64,000 nt of DNA from an uncultured Clostridia bacterium (GTDB taxonomy: Bacteria; Bacillota; Clostridia; TANB77; CAG-508). Shown here in pieces: positions 55,144 to 61,782 of this stretch. Made by a program: the position numbers and the translations under genes. Position 1 is the first letter of the stretch. Each line of letters begins with the position of its first letter. Under the pieces are notes generated by a model. It did no database searches. It was not told the DNA's origin and was given only the letters and a program-made list of their open reading frames with translations. The stretch spans positions 204,348-268,347 of the forward strand of contig OV788638.1 in NCBI GenBank assembly GCA_928721565.1. Reading direction: 5' to 3'.

Positions 55144-56064
55144 TTATCTTATCTTTTCCAAAGTTATTTTTCCTATTTTTCCACTTCTAAAATCATCTAA
55201 AATAATTCTTGAAGTTTTCTCATCATCTACATTCCCACCAGAAATTATTGCACCTCTTCTTTTTCCTATAAGTTGCATAATTTCATATATATTCTCATTT
55301 TCTTCTTGATCTTGTTGTAATATTTCATTAACTTTTTCTTCATCCAAAGAATATCTATCAATTAATTCTTGTCTATATTCTTTTAATAAAAATTTAGTTA
55401 AGTTATACGCCACCTCTGTCAATTCTAAAATTGTGTCTTTTATTGTTCCTGTAAATGCTAAATTAAGTGCTACTTCATTATTTTCAAATTTAGGCCATAG
55501 TACACCGGGAGTGTCCATAAGCTCAATTTCATTATTAATACGAATCCATTGTTTTTGAGTTGTTACTCCTGGTCTATTGGCAACACCAGCGGAATTTTTC
55601 TTTGCAATTCTATTTATAAATGAAGATTTACCTACATTAGGAATTCCAACAACCATAACTCTTATTTTTCTTCCAATTCTGCCCTTGTCAGCATATGATT
55701 GATTCTCTTCTTGCATCGTTCTCTGGATCTGCCTTATTACTTCGTCTACTCCTTTTCCATTATTAGAATTTACTAATACCGCTTTATTTCCCTGTTTTTC
55801 AAAATATGTAGCCCATTTTTTATTATCCTTTTCATCTGATAAATCACATTTATTTAATACTACTATTTTTTTCTTATTTTTAGTTATTTCTTTTATATCT
55901 GGATTTTGACTAGATATTGGTATTCTTGAGTCTAAAATTTCTACAACTATATCTATTAACTTTAAATCTTCCGTAATTTGTCTTCTAGTCTTTGCCATAT
56001 GTCCCGGAAACCAGTTGATGGCGACTTTTGTCACCTCTTCTTTTTCATTATTCATTAATTTCAC
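55144..56064 (-). CDS. rbgA: Ribosome biogenesis GTPase A (RbgA/YlqF)
   Basis: Circularly permuted GTPase: VLNKCDL (G4) precedes GIPNVGKSSFINRIA (G1). Confidence 0.85.
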   Translation of the reverse strand: MKLMNNEKEEVTKVAINWFPGHMAKTRRQITEDLKLIDIVVEILDSRIPISSQNPDIKEITKNKKKIVVLNKCDLSDEKDNKKWATYFEKQGNKAVLVNSNNGKGVDEVIRQIQRTMQEENQSYADKGRIGRKIRVMVVGIPNVGKSSFINRIAKKNSAGVANRPGVTTQKQWIRINNEIELMDTPGVLWPKFENNEVALNLAFTGTIKDTILELTEVAYNLTKFLLKEYRQELIDRYSLDEEKVNEILQQDQEENENIYEIMQLIGKRRGAIISGGNVDDEKTSRIILDDFRSGKIGKITLEKIR

Positions 56065-56692: not shown

Positions 56693-56992
56693 TTAGTCTT
56701 CATCTACAAAATTAAATTCGTCTTTATATTTTTCTTTAAATATTTCAAATACTTTATTTAGTATTTCTTCATCTTCAACTCCTACATATGATTCTTCTTC
56801 TGAATCATCATCAGTGTCTTCTAATTTTAATATTACTACTTCTCCTTCATCTTCTTCACCTTCACCAGTTATTGGTAATAATACTACATATTCTTCGTCA
56901 TCTAATTCTACTAAATCTAAAAATTCAAATTGAACCTCATTTCCATCTTCATCATTTAGAATTACTATATTATCTAATTCTTCGTTTTCCAT
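56693..56992 (-). CDS. DUF1292-family acidic protein
   Basis: EVQFEFLDLVELDDEEYVVLLP...EVVILK pattern. Conserved neighbour of ruvX. Confidence 0.7.
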   Translation of the reverse strand: MENEELDNIVILNDEDGNEVQFEFLDLVELDDEEYVVLLPITGEGEEDEGEVVILKLEDTDDDSEEESYVGVEDEEILNKVFEIFKEKYKDEFNFVDED

Positions 56993-57053
56993 TACTTACT
57001 CCTTTCAAATTTTTTATATTTAATATAATACACTATTTTAATAATTTTGGCAA

Positions 57054-57473
57054 CTAATTTTTTATTTTATTTAGATATGTTTCTAAAATATATACTGCAG
57101 ATATAGTATCTACTATATTTCTTTTTTTATTCTTGCCTACATCTAAGAAATTCATCGTTTTATGTGCAGCTACTGTAGTCAATCTCTCATCAATTGTCTC
57201 TATTTTTAGCTTATTGTATTTACATTTTAATTTATGTATAAATTTCTCTGTTATTTCTGTTCTCGCTGATGGAGTTCCATTCATATTTATTGGTTTTCCT
57301 ATAACAATTGTATCAATTTCATATTGTTCTAATATTTCATCTAATCTTTTCAAAATTACTTTATCAGAACCACTGTTATGAATTGTTTCTAATCCTTGCA
57401 CTGTTATATTTAATGCATCTGTTATTGCTATTCCTGTTCTTGCATCTCCATAGTCTATTCCCAATATTCGCAT
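57054..57473 (-). CDS. ruvX: Putative pre-16S rRNA nuclease / Holliday-junction resolvase-like YqgF
   Basis: MRILGIDYGDARTGIAI RNase H-like motif. Confidence 0.9.
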   Translation of the reverse strand: MRILGIDYGDARTGIAITDALNITVQGLETIHNSGSDKVILKRLDEILEQYEIDTIVIGKPINMNGTPSARTEITEKFIHKLKCKYNKLKIETIDERLTTVAAHKTMNFLDVGKNKKRNIVDTISAVYILETYLNKIKN

Positions 57474-57481
57474 ATTTACTC

Positions 57482-57736
57482 CTATTCTTCTAATCCAATA
57501 TATTTTATAACCATACTCTCTAAAAGTTCATCTCTTTCTATTTGTCTTATCTTATTTCTTGCATCTTTGTAACTTGTTATATATGTTGGATCTCCTGATA
57601 GTATATATCCAACTATTTGATTTATAGGATTATATCCTTTTTCCACCAATGCTGCATATACTTCCTTTAGAATTTCTTCTTTTTTGGCATTTTTTTCTTT
57701 TTCAAAACTAAAACTCATTGTTTTATCAAAATCCAT
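57482..57736 (-). CDS. ireB: UPF0297 / IreB-family protein
   Basis: [38 protein letters not shown] matches the DUF965/IreB consensus. Confidence 0.75.
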
Positions 57737-57755: not shown

Positions 57756-58898
57756 TTAAATACATGTAATATCATTTTCATTTTTATCAGCATTATCAAC
57801 ATATTGTTCCAGTTTTTTCAAAACTTCTTCCATTCCTGTTCCTTTGTAATATGTCGTTAATACAAAATTAAGTTTAGCTTTTACAACTTGTGGTGTTTCT
57901 TCCTTTTTCTTCTTTTTAGTTTTTCTATCTATTTGTTCAATTTCTACTTCATCTACATTATCGTTTTGTGGTAATGATATTTCTATTTTTTCTGCTTCAT
58001 TTTTTACATCTGTTATGAATGTAATTACTGATTCAATATCAACTCCTGAAAATACTATTACAAACTTAGGTCCCATGTATCTTATATATAGATAATCTTT
58101 TGATATATTATTTTCTATATATTCACTTATATCCATTATAACTTGATTTCCTAATTTTCTTGAATAATTATCATTTATTTCTTCTATGTTAGTTATTCTA
58201 TACATACATACTGTAGATGTAGTATATTTATCAATTATTTTTTTACCTTCTCCATATAAATATTCTTCTGAATATAGTCCTGTAAATAAGTCTTTTCTTA
58301 CTATTGATTCCAATGTCTTTTGATGTACTACTGTTCTTAATACTGATACTATATTTTCTTTTATTACTTCAAATATTGTAGTATCAATATTGTCAAAATC
58401 ATGTGGAACACCACTTTCTATTATCCAATACCCAATATATACATTTTCTATATATATTGGAAAAAAGATTGCTGACTTTGCTCTTCCGAATTCCATTTCT
58501 TGATATGGTAATCGTTCATTGTCATTATTAACAGTTACATATTTAGGTGTAGCTGTTGCTATACTATCTTTAAAAATTGGAACATCTTGTAATTTACTTA
58601 ATGTATTCCAATGTTTTGGATCAACATTAGAAGCTTTTACTTCATATTCAGCTCCATTAAACACAACTATTGTAGAATATTTTATTTCATATTTTTCAAT
58701 TAGAATATTATTTATTTTTTGAATCTTTTCATCTACTGATGAACATTCTCCTATTGTACTTAAGAAATCTTGTAACACCCTTAAATTATTAGCTTGTCTG
58801 CTTAAATTATTAAATTGTTGTATTTTTTTATGTATCGTTATATTATAAATTAGTAATACAATTATAATTGCAACTAATATTCCAACTATAAATATCAA
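57756..58898 (-). CDS. Membrane-anchored protein with a sensor-like middle region and a degenerate GGDEF domain (RYMGPKF replaces RYGGEEF)
   Basis: N-terminal TM helix; DLFTGLYSEEYL is a GGDEF N-terminal motif; IDxF-like RITNIEEINDNYS; a GG(D/E)EF position reading RYMGPKF; no RxxD I-site. Confidence 0.55.
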   Translation of the reverse strand: MIFIVGILVAIIIVLLIYNITIHKKIQQFNNLSRQANNLRVLQDFLSTIGECSSVDEKIQKINNILIEKYEIKYSTIVVFNGAEYEVKASNVDPKHWNTLSKLQDVPIFKDSIATATPKYVTVNNDNERLPYQEMEFGRAKSAIFFPIYIENVYIGYWIIESGVPHDFDNIDTTIFEVIKENIVSVLRTVVHQKTLESIVRKDLFTGLYSEEYLYGEGKKIIDKYTTSTVCMYRITNIEEINDNYSRKLGNQVIMDISEYIENNISKDYLYIRYMGPKFVIVFSGVDIESVITFITDVKNEAEKIEISLPQNDNVDEVEIEQIDRKTKKKKKEETPQVVKAKLNFVLTTYYKGTGMEEVLKKLEQYVDNADKNENDITCI

Positions 58899-58917: not shown

Positions 58918-61188
58918 CTAATAATTTTTTTTCATTTGATTTAATGTATTATTCATTCTTGGCGAAAATCCATTACTATTATTATTTCTTATTGATGGTG
59001 GTGCATACTTTTCTTTTTTATTACCACTTTTGTATACCATATTAGCTAAATTCCTTAAACTTTGAATAAATTCTTTAGAGTATCCTTTTAATGATATATC
59101 ACAGGTTACTAATCCATCTAAATATCTTAAATATGATTTAAGATCAAATGGTATTGTAACATGTTTTACTGTTTTTCTATCAAATAATTCTTTTCTAACA
59201 GTCATTGATGCATCATTATATATTGAAATTCCACCTATTAATATTCCTTCACTAATCTCTCTTGTATTTATGAATTTATTTAATACTACTCTTGCTTTTG
59301 ATTCTTCAAACATGCCTTTATCACTTAATTGTCTTAAAAATGCTGTAAGTGGTTGTATTGTTAAAATATCCATTGATTGAACTATATATATTTCTTGAGC
59401 ATATTTAAAATATCTATTTGGTGTTGTAAAATCACAATCCATTAATACAACTGTATGCATTTCTAATAGAGTTTGTACTATTGGCTCAACTGCCTCTAAA
59501 TTTTCATCCTTCTCAAATGGAGATGTGTATATAGTTAAATTTTTATGAGCTTGTATTCCATTTGCTTTACCTATTTTTAAATTTTTCATTATATAATTTG
59601 ATTGATTTCGTAGTTCTTCTTCATTTTTGGTATATATATAATATGCATTTCTGTTTTGTGTTAAATCCAATATCGCTGTATTTATACCGTTTGTTGATAA
59701 TATTTCTGCCACATTGTTTATTAAAAATGATGTTCCATTTTTACTAGTTCCAACAAATGCTGCTAGTTTTTGATTTGAGTTTATTATATTATCTATATTT
59801 AATTCAGGATATTGTTCTATTTCTTCTTTTTTATTAATTTCGTTTGACGTTTTTAAACTATTTAGAACATTTGCATATTGTTCTTCAATTCTGTCATCAT
59901 TATCATTATTTTCAAATCCTGGCAATGTTGTTTCTTCTTCACTATCTTCAAATCCTGGTAGTGTTGTTTCTTCTTCACTGTTTTCGAATCCTGGTAATGT
60001 TACTTCTTCCTCACTATTTTCGAATCCTGGTAAAGTTGTTTCTTCTTTACTGTTTTCAAATCCTGGTAAAATTGTTTCTTCTTCACTGTTTTCGAATCCT
60101 GGTAATGTTGTTTCTTCTTGTTCTTCAACAGGTTTAACCTTTGGCGGTCTTCCTCTTTTTCTTTTTGGTTGTTCTGCTGCTGGTTCTTCTACCTTCTTTT
60201 TTGGTGGTCTTCCTCTTCCACGTTTTACAGGTTTCATTTCTTCTTTTTCTATATTTTCAATCTTTTCTATTTCATCAGGTATTGTTTCTGGAACTACTTT
60301 TGGTCTTTTCTCACTAATTGGCTTAGATGTATCTGCTGGTTTTGTAAGTATTTTTTTCTTCTTTAATCCTATTGTAGAAGGAATAACTACTGGTGCACTT
60401 GGTTTTTTTGTTCTACTATTGTTTAATAGTATTTCGCTTGTTCCCTCTTTTTCTTGTGGCTTTTCTAACCTTACTTTATCAGATATTTTATTACTATATG
60501 AGTTTACTTCTTGATATTTTTTAGATTTTTCTTCTAAAACTGCTCTTACATTAAGTGGCAAGCATTTGCTTATTACTTTTAATTGTGTATCATTGTATTG
60601 GCTTGCTATACTGTCAAAGCTTTCTACATATTTTTCTTCATCATTACCAATTCTTTTGTAATGTGCTAATATATTTTGAATTTCTAATTCACTAACATCA
60701 TTTTCATCATCTTTTTCATATGTTACATCTTCTGTATCTATCTTATAATAGATTTTAGCTTCTTTTTTTGAACGTGGTCTTTTTATTAGTTTGCAAACCT
60801 CACTTGCGCTTCTGTCATTTCCTAATAGTATGTCATATATTCCTATTCCAAATAATTTAACTAATATTTGTTCTGATTTGTTTCTTCTTTCTGTACATAT
60901 TAAAATTATAGGAATATTTTCTCCTTTAGTATTTGAAGCTTCATCACTAATACTATCTAATCTATCAAATAAGAATTTGTCCATTTGTTCATAATCAGTA
61001 TTAACATATTGTTCCAAATCTTCGCTTATTACTATTCTATCATATGTTTTGTCTCTTTGTAATTCTTTTAATATTGCATTAAAGTAATAAACATTTTTGT
61101 ATGATATTATTTGTTTATATTCTGCTTGATATTTTTTTATTATAGCTTGTGATGTATTTTCATTACTTACTGCAAATAAAACTTTCAT
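58918..61188 (-). CDS. 756-aa multidomain protein: N-terminal atypical receiver-like domain, basic AT-hook region, six 12-aa tandem repeats, and a C-terminal ParA/MinD-like domain with a degenerate P-loop (TadZ/CpaE-like ends with a roughly 300-aa insert)
   Basis: Receiver-like MKVLFAVSNE...RIVISEDL...IPIILICTERR...GIYDILLG. AT-hooks KRGRGRPPKKK and KRKRGRPPKVK. Six EETTLPGFENSE repeats. A Walker A-like FVGTSKNGTSF and Walker B-like VVLMDCDFTTP about 110 aa apart. Confidence 0.5.
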   Translation of the reverse strand: MKVLFAVSNENTSQAIIKKYQAEYKQIISYKNVYYFNAILKELQRDKTYDRIVISEDLEQYVNTDYEQMDKFLFDRLDSISDEASNTKGENIPIILICTERRNKSEQILVKLFGIGIYDILLGNDRSASEVCKLIKRPRSKKEAKIYYKIDTEDVTYEKDDENDVSELEIQNILAHYKRIGNDEEKYVESFDSIASQYNDTQLKVISKCLPLNVRAVLEEKSKKYQEVNSYSNKISDKVRLEKPQEKEGTSEILLNNSRTKKPSAPVVIPSTIGLKKKKILTKPADTSKPISEKRPKVVPETIPDEIEKIENIEKEEMKPVKRGRGRPPKKKVEEPAAEQPKRKRGRPPKVKPVEEQEETTLPGFENSEEETILPGFENSKEETTLPGFENSEEEVTLPGFENSEEETTLPGFEDSEEETTLPGFENNDNDDRIEEQYANVLNSLKTSNEINKKEEIEQYPELNIDNIINSNQKLAAFVGTSKNGTSFLINNVAEILSTNGINTAILDLTQNRNAYYIYTKNEEELRNQSNYIMKNLKIGKANGIQAHKNLTIYTSPFEKDENLEAVEPIVQTLLEMHTVVLMDCDFTTPNRYFKYAQEIYIVQSMDILTIQPLTAFLRQLSDKGMFEESKARVVLNKFINTREISEGILIGGISIYNDASMTVRKELFDRKTVKHVTIPFDLKSYLRYLDGLVTCDISLKGYSKEFIQSLRNLANMVYKSGNKKEKYAPPSIRNNNSNGFSPRMNNTLNQMKKNY
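59911..60126. repeat. Six tandem 36-bp coding repeats inside the 756-aa gene
   Basis: ttc[a/g]aatcctggtaatgttgtttcttcttcact[a/g]t[c/t] x6, encoding (E)ETTLPGFENSE. Confidence 0.9.
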
Positions 61189-61191
61189 TTG

Positions 61192-61593
61192 TTACCCCCT
61201 TCCAAACTTCACAACAATTGCAAATGCAAGCGGTAAAATTTGGCATATTACTAATATAGTTACGAATGATATCATCATTACTAAACCTTTTTCTTGTGTG
61301 TCTAATTTTCTGATTCCTATCACATATTGATATATTGCACTTACTGCAATTCCTAAAAAACATAATGGTATACTATATATTCTTATTAAATTCAATATGT
61401 ATGCTGTTAATCCATATGCATCTGAACCATATTTTTGTTTATATTCTTCAAGTGTCTTTGCTGTATTTTCTTTTATTTTTATCAATTGACTCTCATTTTT
61501 TTCATCTATTATATTTTCTGCTGCATATACTTGATTACATCCAAATATCACTATTGTCATTAGCAATATTATTATTGCAACTAGTTTTTTCAT
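61192..61593 (-). CDS. Small membrane protein (134 aa): signal peptide, a roughly 60-aa extracytoplasmic segment and two C-terminal TM helices. First gene of the operon.
   Basis: The start is probably MKKLVAIIILL at 61593, with AGGAAAGGAA upstream. Its 3' end overlaps the 756-aa gene by 4 nt. Confidence 0.45.
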   Translation of the reverse strand: MKKLVAIIILLMTIVIFGCNQVYAAENIIDEKNESQLIKIKENTAKTLEEYKQKYGSDAYGLTAYILNLIRIYSIPLCFLGIAVSAIYQYVIGIRKLDTQEKGLVMMISFVTILVICQILPLAFAIVVKFGRG

Positions 61594-61782
61594 ACCATAT
61601 TCCTTTCCTTTCACTTGTTTCATATATTTCTTACCTATATATCATACAATAGAATTAAAAAAATAGCAAGGAAAATCTTGCTATTTTTTTATTTTTTTGA
61701 CTTTATTTTATTTTTAACATTATTTGACATTTTTTCATATTTATGGTATTATTTTCATATTCAAATGAAAAGGGGTGTTTGT

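Follow-up and report, generated by a model that had tools for sequence, protein, structure and literature searches.

The window, a 64-kb stretch of DNA from an uncultured Clostridia bacterium, carries at positions 57,756-58,898 the gene for a membrane-anchored GAF-GGDEF protein whose GGDEF domain has lost both its catalytic and its feedback site. Yet the gene is under purifying selection beside the gene for a 756-aa protein, so that its product looks like an enzyme that has turned into a non-enzymatic signalling part. On balance, we favour the view that it serves as a GAF-gated adaptor which has no catalytic activity and acts on the 756-aa protein, a model in which we infer the topology, the signal flow, the partner and the surface of interaction. 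Many GGDEF domains are degenerate, and most of those characterised still use their I-site or adjoin an EAL domain, whereas members of this family have neither nucleotide site.

Architecture and fold of the GGDEF protein

The gene, the rest of its three-gene module and the ireB-ruvX-DUF1292 block, with all their features, lie on the minus strand. According to the list of open reading frames and the sequence itself, the gene is an intact ORF that encodes 380 aa in the order TM-GAF-degenerate GGDEF. Its TTG start codon has a ribosome-binding site (GGAGGG) 8-13 nt upstream and is backed by homologue alignments that begin at residue 1 or 2; the stop codon occupies 57,756-57,758. The protein begins with a single N-terminal transmembrane anchor (residues ~2-24; 58,827-58,895), in which residues 2-19 are hydrophobic and which is followed by HKK. 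This segment is kept in homologues and is part of a helix in the AF2 model (residues 2-49, pLDDT 88-97). By the positive-inside rule, the remainder of the protein would be cytoplasmic. It consists of a GAF-fold sensor domain (residues ~53-165; 58,404-58,742), a linker with a long signalling helix that leads from GAF to GGDEF (residues 166-202; 58,293-58,403; AF2 helix 173-199) and the degenerate GGDEF domain (residues 203-380; 57,759-58,292). The GGDEF domain is interrupted by a variable Lys/Glu-rich insertion (residues 310-340; 57,879-57,971; pLDDT 57-58), which differs among orthologues in sequence and length while its E/K-richness is maintained.

An earlier note on this DNA had described a degenerate GGDEF domain and had proposed alignment and structure prediction as a check of the fold, and both approaches bear out a GGDEF (nucleotidyl-cyclase-like) fold. 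The Pfam profile PF00990 matches with an E-value of 8.3e-10 and 39.1 bits (gathering score 23.8), the NCBIfam model TIGR00254 matches with 44.8 bits (cut-off 37.4), and the domain aligns with that of the diguanylate cyclase DgcR. The AF2 model used throughout is alignment-based and has a pLDDT of 89.9; a single-sequence AF2 model (pLDDT 41) was unusable. Using Foldseek, the model matched the GAF-GGDEF cyclase Dcsbis over its full length, and its sensor domain has the GAF fold. The Pfam GAF profile does not match the window protein itself; weak matches to GAF, GAF_2 or GAF_3 occur in four of ten distant family members, one of them at 23.0 bits against a cut-off of 22.4.

Loss of the active site and the inhibitory site

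The N-terminal DLFTGL motif is kept, as the earlier note had stated, at residues 203-208 (58,275-58,292). At the position of R-x-G-G-(D/E)-E-F the protein instead reads RYMGPKF (residues 273-279; 58,062-58,082), which lies on the turn of a beta-hairpin in the AF2 model and which a phmmer search of the PDB placed exactly beneath RFGGEEF of DgcR (6zxb/6zxm), in agreement with the earlier reading of MGPKF as the remains of GG(D/E)EF. The RxxD inhibitory site, expected to precede the GGDEF position by five residues, is likewise gone, again as previously described: SKDY (residues 266-269; 58,092-58,103) lies beneath RKSD of wild-type DgcR (6zxm). In the family alignment, RxxD is found in distant intact homologues and is missing throughout the degenerate clade.

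The former metal and phosphate site, YRITNIEEIND (residues 233-243; 58,170-58,202), was located by alignment to DgcR and to intact family members. DIDKFK of DgcR is aligned with RITNIE, and the canonical D-I-D-x-F-K-x-x-N-D has become R-I-T-N-I-E-E-I-N-D. In PleD, D327 binds metal, N335 and D344 bind guanine, K442 and R446 bind phosphate and E370 is catalytic (PMC7288161). Family alignments pair D327, D344, E370, K442 and R446 with R234, N251, P277, D371 and E374 of the window protein, respectively, so that five of these six residues are replaced and only the equivalent of N335 (N242) survives. The equivalents of the metal ligands D327 and E370 are now Arg/Lys and Pro, that of E371 is Lys278, and the phosphate binders have given way to the acidic D371 and an invariant E374. 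The claim that the mid-domain motifs are kept therefore holds for the N335 equivalent but not for the other catalytic residues. Since the PleD equivalents are replaced and GGEEF has become MGPKF, leaving the protein without the residue set of an active diguanylate cyclase (GG(D/E)EF, D327/N335/D344 and K442/R446), these alignments strongly support the earlier suggestion that the domain is non-catalytic. The automatic label 'diguanylate cyclase' is wrong for the degenerate clade, and such mislabelling would swell the c-di-GMP signalling inventories of these organisms.

PelD (Pseudomonas aeruginosa; Bacillus cereus), which serves the Pel polysaccharide machinery as its c-di-GMP receptor, shares the TM segment, the cytoplasmic GAF domain and the dead GGDEF domain. 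It is also encoded within a multi-gene module, as is the window protein, and acts post-translationally (PMC7112168). However, degenerate receptors of the PelD and PopA type carry the RxxD I-site, which defines PelD-type receptors and is required in PelD (PMC7112168), whereas the window protein lacks RxxD and has a dismantled GTP site. The receptor role that the earlier note had proposed by analogy with other degenerate GGDEF proteins is thus unlikely in its canonical, c-di-GMP-binding form. The best full-length structural matches and the best sequence match, Dcsbis/PA2771 (4zmu), a phytochrome-linked cyclase (5llw) and DgcR (6zxb), share the sensor-helix-GGDEF arrangement, and distant family members look like cyclases of this kind; GGEEF, the ligands for metal and GTP and, in most cases, RxxD persist in such active cyclases, in contrast to the single N335 equivalent kept here. 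CC3396/PdeA, which senses GTP, and the ATPase-like YybT/GdpP provide precedents for reuse of the GGDEF fold after loss of cyclase function (PMC7288161), but neither an EAL nor a DHH output domain is attached to the window protein and the PdeA-type GTP contacts are gone. In FimX and LapD, a degenerate GGDEF domain with a structural or relay role stands in a GGDEF-EAL protein that binds its ligand on the neighbouring degenerate EAL domain, which the window protein also lacks. Staphylococcal GdpS reportedly has a function independent of c-di-GMP. The window protein scores 30.7 bits with the GdpS model NF047872 against a cut-off of 400 and is thus not a member of that family.

Purifying selection on the degenerate domain

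Selection and residue invariance were measured over 71 orthologues, in all of which the ORF is intact. The overall dN/dS is 0.185, with values of 0.20 and 0.115 for the two parts of the GGDEF domain, 0.10 for the GAF domain and 0.85 for the disordered insertion at residues 310-340. The minimum within the protein, 0.075, falls in the linker and signalling helix (residues 166-202). All seven residues of RYMGPKF are invariant (71/71), as are N237, N242, R247, G250 and N251. Judged from these comparisons, the dead GGDEF domain is under purifying selection and is not decaying. Together, the loss of both nucleotide sites and the presence of a new, invariant hairpin under selection point to a task of the fold that does not involve nucleotides.

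Intact, degenerate and missing versions in one genomic slot

Homologues with the identical TM-GAF-GGDEF layout retain DxDxFK, NDxYGHxxGD, RxxD, GGEEF and KxxGR. In loci L089 and L092-L094, a protein with intact motifs occupies the same slot as the window gene, between the homologue of the 756-aa gene and ireB. Across lineages this slot contains an intact version, a GGGEF version, one of two degenerate flavours or no gene, and RxxD is already absent from the intact syntenic relatives, which have SDED or SKQD in its place. As read from this series, the GGDEF domain of the window protein is descended from an active diguanylate cyclase. Two intact homologues, P0325 and P0380, have no 756-aa neighbour and are found in unrelated genomic contexts. 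In at least eight lineages the homologue of the 756-aa gene is followed directly by ireB and the GGDEF gene is absent, indicating that the 756-aa partner can work without the GGDEF protein, which is an accessory to it. In related uncultured gut Clostridia the version in this slot ranges from intact through partly and fully degenerate to missing, a ready comparative series with which one can ask what a cyclase gives to a complex besides its product.

A conserved three-gene module

The 756-aa gene adjoins the GGDEF gene in all 82 related loci, which represent about 80 species, and also in distant relatives. In 77 of the 82 loci the 756-aa gene is preceded by a gene for a 143-aa protein, as it is in L085, L098, L103, L105, L138 and L152. 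On this syntenic evidence, the conserved unit is a trio in which genes for a 143-aa membrane protein and the 756-aa protein precede the GGDEF gene. No relevant literature was found on a described family with this pairing of a GGDEF and a 756-aa protein. In a scan of 185,579 species-representative genomes with a 12-sequence alignment, at least 583 had a gene for a relative of the GGDEF protein.

The earlier view that the GGDEF gene is the last gene of the operon is not supported. Just 19 nt beyond it begins a block (56,693-57,736) of ireB (57,482-57,736), ruvX (57,054-57,473) and a DUF1292 gene (56,693-56,992), which score 130, 134 and 61.6 bits with the Pfam models IreB, RuvX and DUF1292, respectively. 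ireB is on the same strand and has its own AGGAGG site, and we found no terminator-like hairpin between the two genes. The downstream order recurs, with ireB in 81, ruvX in 80 and DUF1292 in 78 of the 82 loci. The ireB-ruvX-DUF1292 genes form a widespread housekeeping block in Firmicutes; further neighbours in the window include tRNAs, a sortase, an M15 peptidase and a ylqF-type GTPase gene (55,144-56,064). In L085 the trio is found as well and the downstream genes differ, with DUF4430 and ECF-transporter genes in place of ireB. The GGDEF gene thus closes a three-gene module, not the operon, and in this clade the trio is probably co-transcribed with ireB-ruvX-DUF1292.

The probable partner proteins

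The upstream partner gene (58,918-61,188) encodes a 756-aa protein in which a disordered linker joins a conserved N-terminal region of ~235 aa to a C-terminal domain with a remote likeness to MinD/ParA. Searches of Pfam, NCBIfam and the PDB with the whole protein and with its N- and C-terminal domains gave no significant match, even with a family profile; for the N-terminal ~235 aa no family was detected and a receiver fold was not found. Pfam CbiA (MinD/ParA) matches five of ten family members (best E-value 3.8e-5) and MipZ one of ten, and a precomputed PF01656 match exists for one of 120 homologues. The Walker-A-like GTSKNGTSF (residues 480-488; 59,725-59,751) has no GK[ST] lysine, and GK[ST] is absent in every register, so the sequence departs from the deviant Walker A consensus xKGGxxGK[ST]. 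This motif is kept in nearly all orthologues, while distant homologues have GAHKAG[TV]TF or GAPKSGTTF. In an hhalign comparison of the C-terminal profile with E. coli MinD, GTSKNGTSF fell on GKGGVGKTT, in an alignment of 31 columns with a probability of only 2%. Thus, the pairing with a ParA-like protein noted earlier stands as a pairing, but the ParA-likeness is remote, with the Walker-A lysines lost and CbiA detected in five of ten members. At best, these profile matches describe the 756-aa protein as a very divergent MinD/ParA-fold pseudo-ATPase.

The linker contains two AT-hooks, KRGRGRPPK (residues 322-330) and KRKRGRPPK (residues 342-350), within 60,139-60,225. Each full-length orthologue has two GRP cores, except L070, which has three, and a precomputed Pfam match to PF02178 (AT_hook) exists for two homologues. 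Tandem Repeats Finder further identified six tandem 36-nt repeats (59,903-60,119) that encode EETTLPGFENSE. Exact LPGF occurs 0-8 times per orthologue, and each of the 12 linkers inspected contains 2-8 copies of a ΦLPGΦ(D/E)-type motif. These acidic peptides may resemble the ΦPxF core in the C-terminal peptide of FtsZ. This 750-aa family, which unites a degenerate MinD/ParA-like domain with AT-hooks and recurring short linear motifs, is widespread and entirely unannotated. The first gene of the trio (61,192-61,623) encodes the 143-aa protein, whose N-terminus looks like a signal peptide and whose C-terminal part has two hydrophobic helices; it gave only sub-threshold family matches.

The closest comparison for the 756-aa protein is TadZ/CpaE, a positioning protein of MinD/ParA type that carries an atypical receiver domain and the Walker-A-like motif K/RGGXGXS/T (bioRxiv 10.64898/2026.07.08.737194). 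Both combine an N-terminal non-ATPase domain with a C-terminal MinD/ParA-like domain that has a degenerate Walker A, and by this analogy a positioning or adaptor role of the 756-aa protein is plausible. In contrast to TadZ, GTSKNGTSF is off consensus, no tad or flp genes lie near the 756-aa gene, and nothing in TadZ corresponds to the ~230-aa disordered linker with its two AT-hooks and its ΦLPGΦ(D/E) repeats.

Proposed function and alternative explanations

In the adaptor model, the GAF domain would sense a signal and pass it through the signalling helix to a GGDEF dimer. The dead GGDEF domain, predicted to have lost metal and GTP binding in its active site and c-di-GMP binding in its inhibitory site, would be retained as an output and interaction module, and its remodelled basic hairpin (RYMGPKF with R/K234, R247 and N251) would act on a protein partner rather than on a nucleotide. 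The likeliest partner would be the 756-aa pseudo-ATPase, the product of the gene directly upstream, along with the membrane protein of 143 aa. The scaffold function suggested in the earlier note fits this reading, although by inference. A mirror-tree comparison of the GGDEF and GAF domains with the domains of the 756-aa protein, controlled for ireB, ruvX and DUF1292 distances, gave partial correlations of 0.33-0.70, with uniform values of 0.5-0.7 that included the non-module control tm168, and the analysis therefore says nothing on co-evolution.

Alternatively, the protein might still be a nucleotide receptor, with c-di-GMP, GTP, cGAMP, (p)ppGpp or some different ligand bound at a non-canonical GGDEF site or by the GAF domain, and relay to the module the nucleotide levels made by other enzymes. 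We regard this as unlikely: RxxD has become SKDY and was missing already in intact syntenic relatives, the metal ligands are lost, the equivalents of K442 and R446 are the acidic D371 and E374, and the 64-kb window, a small sample, contains neither a c-di-GMP riboswitch nor a second GGDEF gene. It is also rather improbable that the protein is tied to the downstream ireB, ruvX, DUF1292 and membrane-protein genes, for instance as a membrane sensor that feeds IreB-type cell-wall signalling, with the 756-aa gene a merely positional neighbour. The 19-nt gap without a terminator and the GGDEF-ireB-ruvX adjacency in 80-81 of 82 loci argue for such a tie, as does the same adjacency in relatives of 27-28% identity (L089, L091) and in most metagenome loci. 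However, the 756-aa gene still abuts ireB in eight loci that have no GGDEF gene, so that the ireB link goes with the 756-aa gene, or with the locus, and not specifically with the GGDEF gene, and the trio persists in L085 where ireB is replaced.

A residual or new enzymatic activity, such as a weak ATPase or the synthesis of another nucleotide, has a precedent in the weak ATPase of the degenerate YybT/GdpP GGDEF domain (PMC7288161), and the invariant hairpin motif does imply a specific function. Nevertheless, with Arg/Lys and Pro in place of the acidic metal ligands, Lys278 for E371, acidic residues for the phosphate binders and no known GGDEF-fold catalysis without a two-metal site (PMC7288161), we consider it very improbable. 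Least credible is a decaying cyclase remnant without function: the catalytic motifs are lost and some lineages lack the gene, but the uniformly intact ORFs, the low dN/dS (0.12-0.20 in the dead domain) and the invariant replacement motif contradict decay.

Several narrower readings were also rejected: a pseudogene on the basis of dN/dS and the invariant motif; a Pel/EPS receptor on the absence of RxxD and of pel genes; a Tad-pilus identity of the 756-aa neighbour on the Walker motif misfit and the absence of tad genes; and a defence system or phage origin on the lack of PADLOC matches, PHROGs matches that were generic to GGDEF, and the location in syntenic housekeeping DNA in ~80 species.

Going beyond the adaptor model, one may speculate that in gut Clostridia the trio forms an undescribed system for positioning or tethering, with a pseudo-MinD/ParA core and the GGDEF protein as its regulator, although we hold this to be doubtful. 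In such a system, the 756-aa core would have swapped ATP-dependent DNA binding for two AT-hooks and a multivalent ΦLPGΦ(D/E) array. Some lineages would still signal by locally made c-di-GMP, while the lineage of the window would have been hard-wired into direct protein contact via the RYMGPKF hairpin. If so, the versions found in the genomic slot would record the stepwise turn of a second-messenger enzyme into a pure adaptor.

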